DNA from: a virus
Taxonomy: Duplodnaviria; Heunggongvirae; Uroviricota; Caudoviricetes
Strand: one strand, 5' to 3'
IMG/VR virus record: IMGVR_UViG_2534682159_000013
Length of the DNA stretch: 24,608 nucleotides
Both the position numbers and the translations under genes were made by a program. The notes under the pieces are model-generated. The model did not search any database, was not told the DNA's origin, and saw nothing but the letters and a program-made list of their open reading frames with translations. This document shows positions 11,400 through 21,023 of this stretch, in pieces (within the stretch, counting starts at the first letter, position 1; every line of letters starts with the position of its first letter).

Positions 11400-11601
11400 T
11401 GCGGGGAAAGAAGAGTTAAGTAGAATTGCTGCGGGTGCTTGAGGCTGTCTGCCTCGGGCATGCCGCCGTAAGGCAGACAGAGAAAAGCCCCAGTTAACAT
11501 TACGCGTCTTGCAGGACGCTTAACATTAATCTGAGGCCCAATCTATGCTTCACAAACGTAGGTTAGCCTCTTACGTGCCGAAAGGCAAGGAGAAGCAGGC
11601 T
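11400..11601. promoter_or_regulatory. hok mRNA leader with fold-back structure; expected region for an antisense Sok-like RNA
   Basis: Inverted repeat 'ctgtctgcct..aggcagacag' (11425-11456) and 'gcgtc ttgcag gacgc' hairpin. No Sok promoter or terminator could be pinned down by eye. Confidence 0.3.
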
Positions 11602-11757
11602 ATGAAGCAGCAAAAGGCGATGTTAATCGCCCTGATCGTCATCTGTATTACCGTTGTTGTGACGGCACTGGTAACGAGGAAAGACCTCTGCGAGGTACGA
11701 ATCCGAACCGGCCAGACGGAGGTCGCTGTCTTCGTAGACTACGAATCTGAGAAGTAA
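11602..11757 (+). CDS. hokD: Hok/Gef family type I toxin (HokD/RelF-like)
   Basis: 51 aa 'MKQQKAMLIALIVICITVVVTALVTRKDLCEVRIRTGQTEVAVFVDYESEK', matching the Hok consensus and close to my recollection of HokD. AGGAG 9 nt upstream. An in-frame upstream ATG at 11545 gives a 70-aa mok-like extension. Confidence 0.85.
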   Translation: MKQQKAMLIALIVICITVVVTALVTRKDLCEVRIRTGQTEVAVFVDYESEK

Positions 11758-13261: not shown

Positions 13262-13624
13262 ATGCTCATAGATTTGGTTTTACCTTACCCGCCGACGGTG
13301 AACACTTACTGGCGACGCCGTGGCAGCACATATTTTGTATCAAAAGCCGGGGAGCGTTATCGCCGGGCAGTGGCGCTTATTGTTCGCCAGCAGCGACTGA
13401 AATTAAGCCTGTCCGGACGGCTGGCAATAAAAATTATTGCAGAGCCACCGGATAAGCGCCGCCGTGACCTGGACAATATTCTGAAAGCACCGCTGGATGC
13501 GCTGACGCACGCGGGGTTGTTAATGGACGATGAGCAGTTTGATGAAATCAATATTGTACGTGGCCAGCCAGTATCTGGTGGACGGCTGGAGATAAGAATT
13601 ACAGAGGTGGGTGTGCATGAATAA
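13262..13624 (+). CDS. rusA: Holliday junction resolvase RusA
   Basis: 120-aa ORF. 'DKRRRDLDNILKAPLDALTHAGLLMDDEQ..GGRLEIRITE' aligns with E. coli RusA ('[39 protein letters not shown]'). Confidence 0.9.
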   Translation: MLIDLVLPYPPTVNTYWRRRGSTYFVSKAGERYRRAVALIVRQQRLKLSLSGRLAIKIIAEPPDKRRRDLDNILKAPLDALTHAGLLMDDEQFDEINIVRGQPVSGGRLEIRITEVGVHE

Positions 13625-14282
13625 CCAGTATTTACAGTTTGTTCGTGAGCAACTCATGATTGCCACTGCGGATCTTAGTGGGTCGACAAAAGGCCAGCTG
13701 GAAGCCTGGCAGGAAAATGCCCTGTTCGATACAGGGCGTTACAGACGCAAAAAAATTCGTTACCGCGATGAGGTAACCGGAAAAATGATCACGCGGGATA
13801 ATCCCCCGATCCCGGGTAAACAATCACTGGCGAAAGGCTCATCAATTGCCCTGGTCAGTCCGGTTGAGTTTTCGACATCATCATGGCGACGCGCCGTTCT
13901 GTCTCTTGAAGAACATCATAAAGCCTGGCTGCAGTGGTGTTACAGCGGTAGCATTTGCTGGGAGCATCAGATCGCGATAACGCAGTGGGCGTGGACTGAA
14001 TTTAATGCTCAATCCGGTACCAGAAAAATTGCAGGAAAAACTCTGGTGCGCCTGAAGACGTTGATCTGGTTGGCGGCGCAGGCGGTAAAAGCTGAGCTTT
14101 TTGGTGGGGAAGGTTACGAATACCAGGAACTGGCGTTACTGGTGGGAGTAACAACCAAAAACTGGTCCAAGACATTTACTGGTCACTGGGTTGCAATGAA
14201 ACACATTTTTCATCGGCTGGATAGTGAAGCTTTATTGTTGGTGGAGGGAACTCGTTCAAAACAAAAGGCGGCATTTTCATAG
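13617..14282 (+). CDS. Putative late antiterminator Q (assigned by position)
   Basis: 221 aa from an ATG overlapping the rusA stop (ATGAATAA). Sits immediately upstream of a promoter and short-transcript terminator, as Q, PR' and tR' do in lambdoid phages. No Q motif recognised. Confidence 0.5.
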   Translation: MNNQYLQFVREQLMIATADLSGSTKGQLEAWQENALFDTGRYRRKKIRYRDEVTGKMITRDNPPIPGKQSLAKGSSIALVSPVEFSTSSWRRAVLSLEEHHKAWLQWCYSGSICWEHQIAITQWAWTEFNAQSGTRKIAGKTLVRLKTLIWLAAQAVKAELFGGEGYEYQELALLVGVTTKNWSKTFTGHWVAMKHIFHRLDSEALLLVEGTRSKQKAAFS

Positions 14283-14287
14283 CAAAG

Positions 14288-14350
14288 TATTGCAAAAGTA
14301 GACAAAAAGGCATATGTTTCGTGTAAATCTGATATTTTGCCGTTATTATA
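14288..14350 (+). promoter_or_regulatory. PR'-like late promoter region
   Basis: Candidate TTGCAA(14290-14295)-17-TATGTT(14313-14318) and a second TATTAT at 14344-14349; 25-80 nt upstream of an intrinsic terminator. Confidence 0.35.
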
Positions 14351-14370
14351 CGTGATGGCAAAGCCACTAA

Positions 14371-14395
14371 AACCCGTGACCGAGCGGGTTTTTTA
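14371..14395 (+). terminator. Intrinsic terminator (tR'-like) ending a short leader RNA
   Basis: 'aaacccg tgaccgag cgggtttttt': GC stem followed by a T6 run. Confidence 0.7.
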
Positions 14396-14535
14396 CCCCC
14401 CAAAAAATGGCATAGACATTAAACGTGATGACTATTGTGCCAATACTTTCTCCATCAATGACGCCCCTTGACTGCATGGAATCCAATTTGTTATGTAATG
14501 TGTGTTGATATTTTTGAGTTGTTAATCGTGTTACT

Positions 14536-15249
14536 ATGGATGACAGTGCTCTGCTCAGAAACTCTTCACTTTTTGTCGCTTATATGGGCTGTCTCGGATG
14601 GGGGAGCGCTTATTTCTATGGATGGGGTACTTCATTTTACTATGGCTTTCCATGGTGGGTTGTCGGGGCTGGTGTCGATGATGTAGCACGAAGTTTGTTT
14701 TATGCTGTGACAGTTATTGTTATATTCCTTATTGGATGGGGAGTTGGTATTGTTTTCTTTTTGGGCATAAAACAAAAGCGCAATATACAAAATTTGAGTT
14801 TTATCCGGCTTTTTCTCGCGATATTGCTGCTTTTTATTCCACCTGTTCTGGAGTTTTCTGTAATTCATCAGCATGTTGAGCCAGATGTACTGATTTTCTG
14901 CGTTCTTGCTGCCTTTGCAATCACGCTTTTTGTCAGGTCTGGAAGAAGACTCGTTTCAGTCAAATGTTTTTCGGAAATGTCTGTTATTCGCCATCACCGA
15001 ATTGAGTTCATGATGGCTGGGTTTATGATTTATTTCTGGGCATTCTCTCTTATTGCCGGTTGGTACAAACCACAGTTTAAGAGGGAATATCAGGCGGTCC
15101 ACTATGAGAATGTATGGTATTACATTATTGCGCGCTATGATGATCGTCTGGTGTTATCGAAATCATACAGGAGTGGGGGTAAGAAATTCGTTATATTTAA
15201 TAGCGGAAATATTAATGATTTTGAAATTAATACTGTCAGAGTACGTTAA
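14536..15249 (+). CDS. Multi-pass inner-membrane protein of unknown function (AT-rich moron)
   Basis: 237 aa with 4-5 hydrophobic, Trp/Phe/Gly-rich segments and a soluble C-terminal tail of about 60 aa. An overlapping ORF in another frame (14468-14686) leaves the start uncertain. Confidence 0.55.
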   Translation: MDDSALLRNSSLFVAYMGCLGWGSAYFYGWGTSFYYGFPWWVVGAGVDDVARSLFYAVTVIVIFLIGWGVGIVFFLGIKQKRNIQNLSFIRLFLAILLLFIPPVLEFSVIHQHVEPDVLIFCVLAAFAITLFVRSGRRLVSVKCFSEMSVIRHHRIEFMMAGFMIYFWAFSLIAGWYKPQFKREYQAVHYENVWYYIIARYDDRLVLSKSYRSGGKKFVIFNSGNINDFEINTVRVR

Positions 15250-15422
15250 AATTTCCTGAGTAATAAAGATTTTACTGCCCGGCATTGAGCGGTTTTTTTA
15301 TGCCAGAAAAATGGTGCAGTACATAAAATGTGCAGGTGGTTATTAATACCGGTCTTTCAGCTTGCTGGCTTTTTTGACAAGAGTTATTGGTGTGTCACGT
15401 TAACCGGAAAAGGGAAAAAGAC

Positions 15423-15620
15423 ATGCTGAAACAGCAGGATATGACAGAAACCGCCAGAGCAGTTTTTAATGAATTAAGTGCCACCGAACCGGCGACAGTC
15501 GGGGAGATTGCACAGAATACGTACCTTTCACGCGAACGCTGCCAGCTAATACTGACCCAGCTTGTTATGGCGGGTCTGGCAGACTATCAGTTTGGTTGTT
15601 ACAGACGCCTTCAGTCCTGA
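15423..15620 (+). CDS. Small winged-helix-like DNA-binding protein
   Basis: 65 aa from the ATG at 15423 ('MLKQQDMTE...'). 'VGEIAQNTYLSRERCQLILTQLVMAGL' looks like a recognition helix and wing. Stop is embedded in a terminator hairpin. Confidence 0.5.
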   Translation: MLKQQDMTETARAVFNELSATEPATVGEIAQNTYLSRERCQLILTQLVMAGLADYQFGCYRRLQS

Positions 15621-15630
15621 AGGCTTTTTT
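15607..15630 (+). terminator. Intrinsic terminator
   Basis: 'gccttcag tcc tgaaggc tttttt'. Confidence 0.6.
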
Positions 15631-15771
15631 ATTTGTGGTAAATGGGCGGCTGGTGGGTGTTAGGGGCACTCACCAGCCATCTGCTCATGCGTTGGGGTCA
15701 CAAGCAAACCTCAGGCCCATCTGCTTTGCGCAAAAGCGGTATGAGCCTATCAGAGACAGGCTTAATGATCC

Positions 15772-16830
15772 ATGTTTAATACTGTAAAAATATCCAGTTG
15801 TGAGTTAATCAACGCCGACTGCCTGGAATTTATCCGGTCGTTACCCGAAAATTCTGTTGACCTGATAGTCACGGACCCGCCGTACTTTAAAGTGAAGCCT
15901 GAGGGCTGGGATAACCAGTGGAAGGGCGACGATGACTACCTGAAGTGGCTGGACCAGTGTCTGGCGCAGTTCTGGCGGGTGCTGAAACCTGCCGGAAGTC
16001 TTTACCTGTTCTGTGGCCATCGCCTGGCATCTGACATTGAAATCATGATGCGTGAACGCTTCAGTGTACTGAACCATATTATCTGGGCGAAGCCGTCCGG
16101 ACGCTGGAACGGGTGCAACAAGGAAAGCCTGAGGGCGTATTTCCCCGCCACAGAGCGCATTCTGTTCGCGGAACATTATCAGGGGCCGTATCGTCCGAAA
16201 GATGCCGGGTATGAGGCGAAGGGCAGGGCACTGAAACAGCATGTGATGGCTCCGCTGATTGCTTACTTTCGTGATGCGCGTGCTGCCCTGGGGATAACGG
16301 CAAAACAGATAGTGGATGCCACAGGAAAGAAAAACATGGTGTCGCACTGGTTCAGTGCCAGTCAGTGGCAGCTACCGAACGAAAGCGATTATCTGAAATT
16401 ACAGGCGCTGTTTGCCCGGGTGGCAGAAGAGAAGCATCAGCGGGGGGAACTGGAGAAGCCCCACCACCAGCTGCTGGAGACGTATACTTCACTGAACCGG
16501 CAGTATGCGGAACTGCAGAGTGAATATAAGCATCTGCGGCGGTATTTTGGCGTGACGGCGCAGGTGCCGTACACGGATGTGTGGACGCATAAACCGGTGC
16601 AGTACTATCCCGGGAAACATCCGTGCGAAAAACCGGCAGAAATGCTGCAGCAGATAATCAGCGCGAGCAGTCGTCCGGGGGACCTGGTTGCAGATTTTTT
16701 CATGGGGTCGGGTTCGACAGTCAAAGCCGCGATGGCGCTGGGGCGTCGTGCAACTGGCGTTGAGCTGGAGACTGAACGTTTTGAGCAGACGGTCAGGGAA
16801 GTTCAGGATTTAGTCAGTCAGAACGGATGA
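15772..16830 (+). CDS. DNA methyltransferase (beta-class N6A/N4C, DPPY then FxGSG), orphan
   Basis: 352-aa ORF. 'LIVTDPPYF' (motif IV) near the N-terminus and 'VADFFMGSGST' (motif I) near the C-terminus. No adjacent restriction endonuclease candidate. Confidence 0.85.
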   Translation: MFNTVKISSCELINADCLEFIRSLPENSVDLIVTDPPYFKVKPEGWDNQWKGDDDYLKWLDQCLAQFWRVLKPAGSLYLFCGHRLASDIEIMMRERFSVLNHIIWAKPSGRWNGCNKESLRAYFPATERILFAEHYQGPYRPKDAGYEAKGRALKQHVMAPLIAYFRDARAALGITAKQIVDATGKKNMVSHWFSASQWQLPNESDYLKLQALFARVAEEKHQRGELEKPHHQLLETYTSLNRQYAELQSEYKHLRRYFGVTAQVPYTDVWTHKPVQYYPGKHPCEKPAEMLQQIISASSRPGDLVADFFMGSGSTVKAAMALGRRATGVELETERFEQTVREVQDLVSQNG

Positions 16831-17309: not shown

Positions 17310-17738
17310 ATGTATTGCCGTGCTGTACCTGTTCTTGTTTTGATATTAGCCAGTCTGACAACTGGCTGCACAAAAGATGTATCGACAAATAATCATGATG
17401 CTTCTCTGTATCACTCAGATAAATTAATAAAGTCGCAAAAATTGAGCTCATCGGAACGTACCCCTGATGCCAGTGAAGAAATCCGGCAGTATGCCATTCA
17501 GGTCAGGAAAGCCATAGAAGAACAGTTAAAGGATGCGAGTAAGTATTCAGGAAAAGAGTGTTCACTGAGAATGTATATGGCCCCGAATGGTCTTCTGCTA
17601 CAGGTTAAAAGAGAAAGCGGTGATCCCGATTTATGTCGTGAAGCGATGAATGCAGTAAAGAATGCTGATATACCATCACCACCGTCTTCAGGAGTATATA
17701 AAGCATTTAGAAATGGCGTGTTGGATTTTAAACTCTGA
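17310..17738 (+). CDS. Lipoprotein with TolA C-terminal (TolAIII)-like domain
   Basis: 142-aa ORF with GGAGATGG Shine-Dalgarno. Signal peptide ending 'LASLTTGC' (lipobox-like). C-terminal 'YSGKECSLRMYMAPNGLLLQVKRESGDPDLCREAMNAVKNADIPSPPSSGVYKAFRNGVLDFKL' aligns along its length with my recollection of E. coli TolA domain III ('YAGKTCTLRIKLAPDGMLLDIKPEGGDPALCQAALAAAKLAKIPKPPSQAVYEVFKNAPLDFKP'). Confidence 0.8.
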   Translation: MYCRAVPVLVLILASLTTGCTKDVSTNNHDASLYHSDKLIKSQKLSSSERTPDASEEIRQYAIQVRKAIEEQLKDASKYSGKECSLRMYMAPNGLLLQVKRESGDPDLCREAMNAVKNADIPSPPSSGVYKAFRNGVLDFKL

Positions 17739-17874
17739 CAGGGGGAGAAGATTTTCTCCTGTCCTGATGATTTTGGGGCGCTGGAAAGATATTGTGCTGT
17801 GAAGTGTTAAATCCCTCACAATTCAGTAAGTTGACAGTTGCCTGTCAGACTGAGCATTTGTTAAAAAAATTTCG

Positions 17875-18052
17875 CATGGTGAATCCCCCTGTGCGGAGGG
17901 GCGACTGGTGAACGGTATGATCTCTTTGATGATCGTAAGCGAGAATACGCGGGTTTGGTGTCACCGGGCTGAACTCACCGGGAGGCACCCGGCACCATGC
18001 TCATGGTGATACAGAAATGCGGCTTCAGCCCCTCTCCGGAGGGGCTTTCTTA
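17875..18052 (+). ncRNA. Solitary copy (A) of the repeat-encoded structured RNA
   Basis: Conserved 5' module 'catggtgaatccccctgtgcggagggg', variable middle, conserved 3' module 'caccgggaggcacccggcaccatg', then terminator 'gcccctctccggaggggc' + T-rich tail. In the ATG frame there is a stop after 11 codons. Confidence 0.45.
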
Positions 18053-18204
18053 TGGACAAAAAAAGCCCGCGCTGGGAGACGCGGGCGGCAAGGAATAAAC
18101 AATAAAACGTGAAGTAATACTTCAACTGGCGAATAATACCCGACAGTAATCACTCTGCGCAATAGCGTGGCCTTTTTCGAATTGCGGGCTGTAGTCTCCC
18201 TTCT

Positions 18205-19527: not shown

Positions 19528-19846
19528 AACATATCCTGTATATTTATGTTGTTACATACAGGCGCTTTTAGTATCTGCCGCACGGCAGTTGTACTTCAGA
19601 ATAAGATGCTTTTGTGACTGGTGGTGTTGTATCTGGGGTTAGCCAGTAGGCAGGTTCAGAGAGTCCGGTGGTAATTATGTGTATGCAGTGGTTGTTGCTG
19701 TACCGTGGGCAAGTTCTGGAACTGGCTTCGTCCATTGTAGATGATTGTTAGCTGGATATCAGTTACCTCATGGAAATGTTAAATGACTCACAATTCGGTT
19801 GATGGGCTATTGTCTGATCGATGGAAGTCTTGTAAAAACGAGCCAG

Positions 19847-20010
19847 CATAGTGAATCCCCCTGTGCGGAGGGGCGTCTGACATGGTCTCCATAGCGATGG
19901 TCACAATACGCAGATTCAGTAGTCAGGCTGAATCTACCGGGAGGCACCCGGCACTATGCTGCTTATGGTGTATACATAGCGATCGGCCCCTCTCCGGAGG
20001 GGCTTTTTTT
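19847..20010 (+). ncRNA. Repeat-encoded structured RNA, copy B
   Basis: 5' 'catAgtg' pairs with 3' 'cacTatg' (compensatory change relative to the other copies); no ATG at the 5' module. Confidence 0.45.
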
Positions 20011-20105
20011 GTGCGGGAAAAGGCTGTGTTGTTAAGTGTTAAATTCCTCACAGTTCAGATGGTTGATGCTTGCCTGTCTGAGGGGGAGTTGTTAAAAAAG
20101 TTCTG

Positions 20106-20279
20106 CATGGTGAATCCCCCTGTGCGGAGGGGCGACTGGTGTGATTTGCATCTTTTCTGTTGTAGGCAATGCAAACGCGGGTTCAGGGACACCAGACTGG
20201 ACTCACCGGGAGGCACCCGGCACCATGTTCATGATGATACAGATACGCAGTGTCAGCCCCTCTCCTGAGGGGCTTTTTT
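20106..20279 (+). ncRNA. Repeat-encoded structured RNA, copy C
   Basis: 5' catggtg pairs with 3' caccatg. Variable region carries nested stems 'ctggtgt..acaccag' and 'tttgcat..atgcaaa'. Confidence 0.45.
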
Positions 20280-20375
20280 ATGCAGGAAAAACGCTGTGTT
20301 GTGAAATGTTAAATTCCTCACAGTTCAGATGGTTGATGCTTGCCTGTCTTACGGGGAGTTGTTAAAAAAGTTCTG

Positions 20376-20539
20376 CATGGTGAATCCCCCTGAGCGGAGG
20401 GGCATATCAGCGCAGGTGTTTCTACTCTATCCTTTCTGTGCGGGTTCAGGTGCTGATACTGAACTCACCGGGAGGCACCCGGCATCATGCATATGGTTAA
20501 CAGACACGTAGCGAAGCCCCTCTCCGGAGGGGCTTTTTT
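20376..20539 (+). ncRNA. Repeat-encoded structured RNA, copy D
   Basis: 5' catggtg pairs with 3' catcatg (one G-U). Variable stem 'tatcagc..gctgata'. Loop of the 5' hairpin is changed (gagcgg) while the stem is kept. Confidence 0.45.
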
Positions 20540-20636
20540 ATGCAGGGAAAAGGCTGTGTTGTGAAATGTTAAATTCCTCACAATTCATGAGGTTGATGAT
20601 TGTCTGATTGATGAGGAGTTTGTTAAAAAAAACGGG

Positions 20637-20790
20637 CATGGTGAATCCCCCTGTGCGGAGGGGTGATATCGTATCATTTCCTGTGTGGCCGACTGATATC
20701 ACGGACATTTGTTCACCGGGAGGCACCCGGCACCATGCAGTATACAGAGATTAGGCATACATCCAGGCTCCTCATCGCAGGAGCCTTTTT
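20637..20790 (+). ncRNA. Repeat-encoded structured RNA, copy E
   Basis: 5' catggtg pairs with 3' caccatg. Variable stem 'gtgatatc..gatatcac'. Terminator sequence differs ('ggctcct catcgc aggagcc ttttt') but sits at the same position. Confidence 0.45.
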
Positions 20791-21023
20791 ACATGTAAAA
20801 AAAAACCGCTCCTGGGAAGAGCGGTTGGCAAGGAAGCAAGGAATAAATAACAAAACGTGAAGTAATTTATTCAGCACCCTAATAATACCTTAGAGTAATC
20901 ACCTTGCGCAACTGTAAGGGCGTATTTCTTTTTTGCGGGCTGTTTTTCTGTGTGACTTTTGTGTTTCCGGAGGTCAGCCCGTGCCTTCTCTGACTCAGAA
21001 CATTATCCCGGCCGGGAGGATTC

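Follow-up and report, generated by a model that had tools for sequence, protein, structure and literature searches.

A probable cargo cassette encoding a TfpB/STM1630-family membrane protein and a neighboring winged-helix/methyltransferase module in the late region of a lambdoid Escherichia coli prophage

Two proposed units downstream of Q

Behind the late antiterminator gene Q of a lambdoid Escherichia coli prophage (IMG/VR virus record IMGVR_UViG_2534682159_000013; the window referred to below is the whole stretch of 24,608 nucleotides (nt) that was analysed) lie two open reading frames (ORFs), one encoding a membrane protein of 237 amino acids (aa) and the other a winged-helix protein of 65 aa, followed by a gene for a DNA methyltransferase. 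It is judged moderately probable that this region consists of two independent units, namely a self-transcribed cargo cassette (a "moron") carrying the membrane gene and a module in which the winged-helix gene accompanies the methyltransferase. The layout is that of ordinary phage cargo and not of a new system. An initial annotation, made from the sequence without database searches, had described a single AT-rich block that was inserted directly after a terminator resembling tR', encoded both proteins, ended in a terminator of its own and had products of no recognized family. Both ORFs exist as described, and the evidence presented below redistributes them between the inserted cassette and the phage backbone.

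The inserted cassette and its borders

The cassette is flanked by a direct repeat (D2), one copy of which covers the tR'-like terminator and the sequence that follows it (14373-14406), the other being located downstream of the membrane gene (15278-15311). An empty site is provided by a viral contig with the same type of Q (L132; 85% nt identity at the Q end), in which the equivalent of window position 14394 is joined straight to that of position ~15293 and the sequence past the junction continues into the winged-helix gene and the methyltransferase. In Shiga toxin 2 (Stx2) phages with a different type of Q, tR' is likewise followed directly by the winged-helix gene, and the membrane gene is missing. 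The membrane gene is therefore present or absent among collinear relatives, with borders at the duplicated tR'. Together, the repeat borders and the empty sites indicate that the inserted unit, of about 900 bases, extends from about 14395 to 15293 and holds only the membrane gene; the proposed insertion directly after the terminator stands for this gene and has to be given up for the winged-helix gene, which is linked to the methyltransferase. Base composition also deviates over the cassette (GC content 0.397, with 0.38-0.40 in the membrane gene and its flanks, vs 0.49-0.54 in the flanking genes), while the winged-helix gene, with a GC content of 0.50, is outside the low-GC stretch, so that the AT-richness ascribed to the whole block applies to the membrane gene and its flanks.

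The downstream copy of the repeat contains a decayed tR'-like hairpin (15278-15300), overlooked in the initial annotation, which aligns with the functional tR' of related phages and folds at -6.2 kcal/mol (z -0.29), a value that does not improve on shuffled sequence. Given the duplicated tR' flanks, recombination between lambdoid late regions is a more likely origin than transposition, and the cassette would have joined the prophage via recombination within the tR' region. In phage phiP27 a different cargo gene is found between Q and the winged-helix gene (locus L004, 1124-2353), encoding a 409-aa protein with a T5orf172/MUG113 domain; the presence of other cargo at the equivalent place supports the view of this site as a cargo hot spot.

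The winged-helix gene and its link to the methyltransferase

In the eight loci compared, without exception, the winged-helix gene is located 147-151 nt upstream of a methyltransferase of the PF01555 family. This spacing is constant in phages of E. coli, Salmonella, Klebsiella and Pantoea, and the pairing is held behind four types of Q (PF06323, PF06530/DUF1133, PF03589 and the 126-aa Stx type). Such a constant linkage across Q types indicates that the winged-helix gene belongs to the backbone and is not part of an insertion. The protein is 81-98% identical across E. coli, Salmonella, Klebsiella, Citrobacter, Buttiauxella and Pantoea, and comparison with the Salmonella, Klebsiella and Pantoea genes gave 24-38 codon differences at the third position vs 4-6 at the second.

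The small protein is a member of phrog_331, contrary to the earlier view that it matched no family, and is named "TrmB family transcriptional regulator". Its profile matches to TrmB, HTH_24 and MarR_2 are all below threshold, the best being TrmB with 20.0 bits vs a cut-off of 25.6. The winged-helix-like nature proposed for it initially is borne out by an AlphaFold2 model (predicted local distance difference test, pLDDT, 89) composed of three helices (residues 2-18, 26-32 and 37-49) and a beta-hairpin (strands 53-56 and 59-62). The top Foldseek matches of this model are winged-helix domains with template modeling (TM) scores of 0.7-0.8; the nearest folds are generic, comprising O-methyltransferase N-terminal domains, IclR/MarR regulators, SelB and Z-alpha (E 0.002 or weaker), and a sequence search of solved structures returned for this protein only an O-methyltransferase N-terminal domain with E = 0.14. 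The fold comparison that had been proposed for both proteins thus led to winged-helix domains for this one and gave no informative match for the membrane-protein model. Based on the gene linkage, the most likely role of the winged-helix protein would be as a partner or a regulator of the methyltransferase.

Conservation from E. coli to Pantoea is also seen in a sequence block at 15365-15400, upstream of the winged-helix gene, which reads CTTG.TG...AGAGTTAT..GT.TGTCA and might serve as a binding site or, in the form TTGNTG-17-TATNNG, as a weak promoter.

A conserved leader of the methyltransferase gene

The encoded methyltransferase shares 99% identity with that of phage 1720a-02, an enzyme whose strong similarity to M.EcoGII, a non-specific adenine methylase, has been pointed out (PMC5778455). 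Constitutive expression of M.EcoGII is reported to be deleterious and its gene to be silent in the lysogen (PMC5778455). In the prophage examined here, the methyltransferase gene would be held silent behind terminators until Q acts.

Across genera, the ~150 nt between the winged-helix gene and the methyltransferase are more conserved than the third codon positions of either gene. This interval is opened by the hairpin and T-run that overlap the winged-helix stop codon (15607-15630), regarded in the initial annotation as the terminator of the block. The hairpin (15607-15624) is real (fold -10.5 kcal/mol, z -2.6), and its stem pairing is kept via two-sided changes (UA to CG in two pairs). In loci without a detected winged-helix gene the leader persists, preceded there by a hairpin of different sequence, and among 81 unique leaders, 78 show a folding energy of -8 kcal/mol or better for the 50 nt that precede them. 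The hairpin is better read as the first element of the methylase leader than as the end of an inserted block.

The leader (~130 nt) carries an invariant 12-bp helix, GGCTGG..CCAGCC. One helix-closing pair is TA in 40, AT in 25, CG in 8 and TG in 6 of 79 unique leaders, with zero mismatch; the T-G combination is compatible with a pair formed in RNA of the sense strand. When viral contigs were scanned for the leader pattern, 113 usable loci were obtained, with the methyltransferase just downstream in 110 and the winged-helix gene just upstream in 100. No family of Rfam matched the leader. A conserved small ORF within the leader was considered and rejected, the 45-aa frame being broken by 1-nt indels in relatives. 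The pattern of conservation and covariation marks the leader as a candidate cis-regulatory RNA, and the winged-helix gene, the hairpin, the leader and the methyltransferase (15423-16830) would form a module that is conserved as part of the backbone in lambdoid late regions.

The membrane protein

The membrane protein belongs to the TfpB/STM1630 family, its assignment to no recognized family having been superseded by database searches. It matches phrog_1521 (unknown function) with E = 2.6e-85 over 221 of the 222 profile positions; PF27470 "TfpB" is precomputed on all 104 database homologs (E down to 1e-149), and in some genomes the identical protein, WP_000342737.1, carries the RefSeq/PGAP name "STM1630 family protein". 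The copies of Pfam and NCBIfam that were searched gave no match, the PF27470 model being newer than those copies. An exhaustive profile search recovered only 70 cluster representatives, from Enterobacteriaceae, Neisseria and Pasteurellaceae. Within Enterobacteriaceae homology is full length (41-97% identity) and the size is the same (~237 aa). The hallmarks of the family are a near-invariant N-terminal motif, AY.G.LGWGSAYFYGWG.S.YYGFPWW...G.DD.ARSL, and a C-terminal beta segment, YY(V/I)L...(I/V)LSK...F. In 24 aligned homologs the segment G21 to W41, D48, R52 and M1 are invariant and the length is conserved too; the core residues of the motif are retained in the relatives from Neisseria and Pasteurellaceae.

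The sequence comprises four strongly hydrophobic segments and an uncharged segment rich in Gly and aromatic residues (residues 11-47), with F+W+Y amounting to 19%, and the AlphaFold2 model has five long helices together with a beta domain of five strands at the C-terminus; both are in agreement with the 4-5 aromatic-rich transmembrane segments noticed initially. Between four and five K+R residues are found in each of the loops 79-91 and 137-155, and acidic residues occur in loops 48-53 and 113-117. The distribution of loop charges together with the AlphaFold2 model leads to a predicted topology with a cytoplasmic N-terminus and five passes, in which the C-terminal beta domain of ~60 residues, as well as that end of the first helix which bears the motif, would be on the periplasmic side. 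A sequence search of solved structures found no relative of the family, and a Foldseek search of the model against BFVD gave nothing significant.

An overlapping frame (14468-14686) had left the N-terminus, or an authentic frameshift, in doubt. This frame is interrupted by stops in the five homologs checked, M1 of the annotated protein is invariant, and two independent complete genomes match the DNA with 100% identity. Moreover, comparison with homologs over the first 50 codons of the frame starting at 14536 gave 12-27 differences at third positions vs 1-4 at second positions. The overlapping frame is thus spurious and, on this comparative evidence, the membrane gene is real and intact, with neither a frameshift nor an alternative N-terminus needed.

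Signals for expression

Upstream alignments revealed a block, cTTGAC(T/G)-N17/18-TTATG, placed about 40-70 nt before the start codon of the membrane gene and its homologs. The block is kept in unrelated contexts (phage 434, an enterotoxigenic E. coli (ETEC) plasmid, a prophage remnant and a post-tRNA site), and in the ETEC plasmid copy homology begins at the -35 hexamer. From this sigma-70-type block the membrane gene would be transcribed in the lysogen. At the ribosome-binding site (14515-14535) the present allele has TTAATCGTGTTACT vs TTAGAGGGATGGCT in locus L013, and its translation may be weak.

A second source of transcripts would lie upstream. Q is 76-77% identical to the annotated Q82-like Q of phage 434, and the promoter-like site at 14290-14318 aligns with TTGCAA-17-TATACT just 3' of Q in that phage; this predicted site scores 8/12, under the cut-off of the scanner, and has no mapped start. 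The hairpin at 14369-14398 (14369-14392 plus the U-run; fold -11.9 kcal/mol, z -3.1), which was correctly recognized in the initial annotation, is homologous to the annotated post-Q terminator of phage 434. The names pR' and tR' are given to these elements here on the basis of position and homology. The membrane gene is on the same strand and downstream of both, its start being 140 nt past the terminator, and as the first gene behind tR' it would also be transcribed by Q-modified polymerase after induction.

Occurrence of the family

Homologs of the membrane gene occur in a wide range of settings. In phage 434 (CPT_434_68) and an O157:H7 prophage the homolog is directly behind a Q82-like Q and terminator, preceded by lpxR on the opposite strand and followed by a DUF3927 gene. 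Other E. coli prophages carry the family gene at the stx-equivalent site, after the tRNAs and followed by lpxR and pmrD, and in a decayed prophage remnant it has a tR' relic upstream and bor downstream. On ETEC plasmids it stands beside eltAB and estB, and on Shigella virulence plasmids (pCP301) among insertion sequence (IS) elements. It is beside lpxR in Citrobacter rodentium and, as STM1630, beside sseJ in Salmonella, and it stands alone among housekeeping genes in Neisseria arctica, Avibacterium and Haemophilus ducreyi. Homologous DNA (at least a partial copy) was detected in 1197 of 5426 complete E. coli genomes (~22%), of which 460 contain at least 80% of the membrane gene; a scan of genome contigs returned only 6 loci. 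The proximity of lpxR to TfpB-family genes was observed in three arrangements (loci L009, L010, L018-L021 and L159).

In the literature, STM1630 was picked from RNA-seq data for a macrophage-infection test (10.1101/689075), it is listed with genes of Salmonella pathogenicity island 2 (SPI-2) in a transcription-profiling table of avirulent regulator mutants (PMC2639726), and it appeared as a motility candidate in a deletion library (PMC4534456). The papers found on STM1630 report no phenotype. A search under "TfpB" retrieved only chemistry, anaesthesia and an unrelated PilB-like motor of Acinetobacter, and the annotation terms of phage 434 returned nothing.

Function of the membrane protein and alternative interpretations

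The membrane protein is most likely an envelope-facing factor of benefit to the host (lysogenic conversion) and would not take part in the phage life cycle. A host-benefit role is ranked above phage exclusion on account of the maintenance of the gene on virulence plasmids, in chromosomal islets and in decayed prophages. Several points weigh against this interpretation and against the self-transcribed cassette. Deletion of STM1630 did not reduce intramacrophage replication (10.1101/689075), while the motility candidate was re-tested with clean deletions to exclude polar effects (PMC4534456). Conservation is the sole basis for the candidate promoter, which has a weak -10 element and was not called by a consensus scan, and the allele lacks the GAGG-type ribosome-binding site of its homologs, so that expression may be low. 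The AlphaFold2 model of the membrane protein is only moderately confident (mean pLDDT 69), with uninformative fold matches. A role in phage exclusion fits the same anatomy equally well, and the linkage with lpxR may only mirror a hot spot in which both genes are frequent cargo.

Superinfection exclusion or abortive infection, by which the protein would block the entry of DNA of other phages or kill infected cells, is considered rather unlikely. It would agree with a prophage-made multi-pass inner-membrane protein with a predicted conserved surface on the periplasmic side, with a single stand-alone gene whose scattering over mobile elements and islets is like that of many defence genes, and with its location in a late-region cargo hot spot. 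Nevertheless, the PADLOC defence library gave no match, PHROG matches are of unknown function only and fold searches detected no resemblance to a known exclusion protein; in addition, many copies on virulence plasmids and in chromosomal islets are beside virulence and not defence genes. Cooperation with the lipid A deacylase LpxR, or envelope remodeling in general, with the protein activating, localizing or protecting against lipid A modification, appears distinctly unlikely. The two genes are divergent and adjacent in C. rodentium, convergent and adjacent, together with pmrD, at the post-tRNA site of E. coli prophages, and ~1.3 kb apart in phage 434 and O157:H7, where lpxR is upstream on the far side of Q. 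Prophage lpxR has been described as a virulence gene of enterohaemorrhagic E. coli (EHEC) regulated by Ler/Pch (Ogawa 2018, as cited in PMC9263587). On the other hand, lpxR is missing from the locus of this window, and no LpxR hit was obtained in the ~4 kb around the family gene in the ETEC plasmid, Shigella pCP301, Salmonella, Neisseria and Pasteurellaceae loci. The recurrent lpxR neighborhood is a lead, not a result.

That the membrane and winged-helix genes form a single unit, switched only by Q and with the winged-helix protein regulating the membrane gene, is highly improbable and already contradicted by gene distribution. Their adjacency on the same strand, the decayed hairpin between them, which would permit co-transcription in this prophage, and their identical spacing in 13 viral contigs are outweighed by the observations that most winged-helix loci lack the membrane gene and always have the methyltransferase, that phage 434, O157:H7, plasmids and chromosomes have the membrane gene but no winged-helix gene, and that the empty site of L132 removes the membrane gene only. 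Equally hard to credit is a late-phase phage function, for instance as a lysis timing factor or antiholin: the protein is encoded first in the Q-dependent transcript, but the holin and endolysin genes are more than 6 kb away, the gene is missing from closely related phages and it is present in non-phage contexts. Two broader readings are regarded as doubtful. In one, TfpB/STM1630 would be a new single-gene envelope factor, spread by lambdoid phages, virulence plasmids and pathogenicity islets of animal-associated Proteobacteria, that acts at the periplasmic face of the inner membrane, by phage exclusion or together with LpxR in lipid A remodeling. In the other, the winged-helix protein and the leader would constitute an undescribed device that gates expression of the promiscuous M.EcoGII-type methyltransferase.

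With the favored division into a cargo cassette and a methyltransferase module, the membrane gene represents a further case of an uncharacterized cargo family, and the window adds nothing that singles it out. The company that the family keeps (eltAB, sseJ, lpxR and the stx-equivalent site) makes its function of practical interest. The main gains are corrective, in particular the assignment of the winged-helix gene to the M.EcoGII-like methyltransferase. Of the by-products, the most interesting is the conserved leader of the methylase gene; with its RNA-type covariation, it may explain how a deleterious non-specific methylase is silenced until the late phase.

The late region of the prophage

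The stretch 14283-15771 is 100% identical to the chromosomes of the Shiga toxin-producing E. coli (STEC) strains STEC2017-197 and O91:H21 FWSEC0008 and 99.5% identical to many further chromosomes, and the arrangement of the window was found in 179 E. coli genomes (at least 80% query coverage) and in 13 viral contigs. The annotated neighborhood is that of a lambdoid E. coli prophage with a late region resembling those of Stx phages and lacking stx. Genes for DUF968 and RusA proteins precede Q, after which come the two "hypothetical proteins", the DNA methyltransferase, tRNA-Ile, tRNA-Arg, a protein with a TolA C-terminal domain, repeated STnc100 elements, a nanS-p-type esterase, holin and lysozyme. 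The coordinates of the features discussed are collected in Table 1.

Table 1. Positions of the features of the late region within the window and the evidence for each.
Feature	Position	Strand	Evidence
Late antiterminator Q (Q82-like type)	13611..14282	+	PF06323 match, 9.1e-91
pR'-like late promoter, TTGCAA-17 nt-TATGTT (predicted)	14290..14318	+	read from sequence
tR'-like intrinsic terminator, copy 1, strong	14369..14398	+	9-bp stem + U6
AT-rich inserted cassette (spacer, promoter block, membrane gene, decayed terminator copy)	~14395..15293	+	
Candidate own promoter of the membrane gene	14468..14497	+	TTGACT 14468-14473; TGtTATGTA 14489-14497
TfpB/STM1630-family inner-membrane protein, 237 aa	14536..15249	+	phrog_1521, PF27470, alignment, substitution pattern, AlphaFold2
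Decayed second tR' hairpin copy	15278..15300	+	second copy of direct repeat
65-aa winged-helix protein, methyltransferase partner	15423..15620	+	phrog_331 match, 2.8e-37
Hairpin + T-run overlapping the winged-helix stop codon, opening the methylase leader	15607..15630	+	scan
Conserved methyltransferase leader, candidate structured RNA	15640..15771	+	conservation, covariation
N6-adenine DNA methyltransferase, M.EcoGI/II-like	15772..16830	+	PF01555, 5.8e-44

Other elements were observed in the surroundings. After the tRNA genes, a 142-aa protein with a TolA C-terminal domain (17310-17738; PF06519, 5.7e-23) is encoded at the position occupied by stx in Stx phages. The STnc100 small RNA family (RF02076, 119-172 bits) is represented by five copies (17845-18057 and 19817-20796), four of them forming a tandem array ahead of the nanS-p-type esterase gene. 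At 11433-11607 there is a sok antitoxin RNA (RF01794, 117.7 bits), and the annotation of the identical genome places a Hok/Gef family protein ~2.9 kb upstream of the membrane gene.

Comparison with known systems

The protein of the window shares with the rest of the TfpB/STM1630 family its length, the N-terminal motif GWGSAYFYGWG..YYGFPWW and the C-terminal beta domain, and nothing sets it apart. An ORF of the Moraxella pilin region is called tfpB. The Pfam name "TfpB" suggests a link to pili, and the protein resembles TfpY/FimB-like pilin accessory proteins in its similar length, N-terminal membrane region and C-terminal periplasmic beta domain. These accessory proteins have been described as having 235-245 aa, three N-terminal helices and a large, C-terminal periplasmic beta-rich (two-sheet) domain (PMC11841053), unlike the model of the window protein, with its five helices and ~60 periplasmic residues. 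A pilin-accessory role was considered and set aside, no pilin gene being located beside any family member examined.

P22 SieA, HK97 gp15 and T4 Imm are small inner-membrane exclusion proteins of phages or prophages. The window protein has in common with them that it is a small inner-membrane protein encoded by a prophage, and differs in the lack of a sequence, profile or fold match to defence or exclusion families in the libraries searched. For the second unit, an analogy is offered by the controller proteins of restriction-modification systems, in which a small protein of DNA-binding type is likewise encoded just upstream of a methyltransferase. In contrast to controller systems, the module has no restriction enzyme partner and the winged-helix protein is outside the Xre-type helix-turn-helix controller family.

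The cassette itself recalls the morons of lambda-type phages, of which bor and lom encode outer-membrane proteins with shown phenotypes. The window protein has no sequence relationship with either of them and, unlike them, is predicted to be an inner-membrane protein. As in those morons, a single AT-rich gene with its own promoter-like block is placed between backbone genes beside a terminator, is found in some close relatives but not in others and has been kept in decayed prophages, where it stands beside bor.

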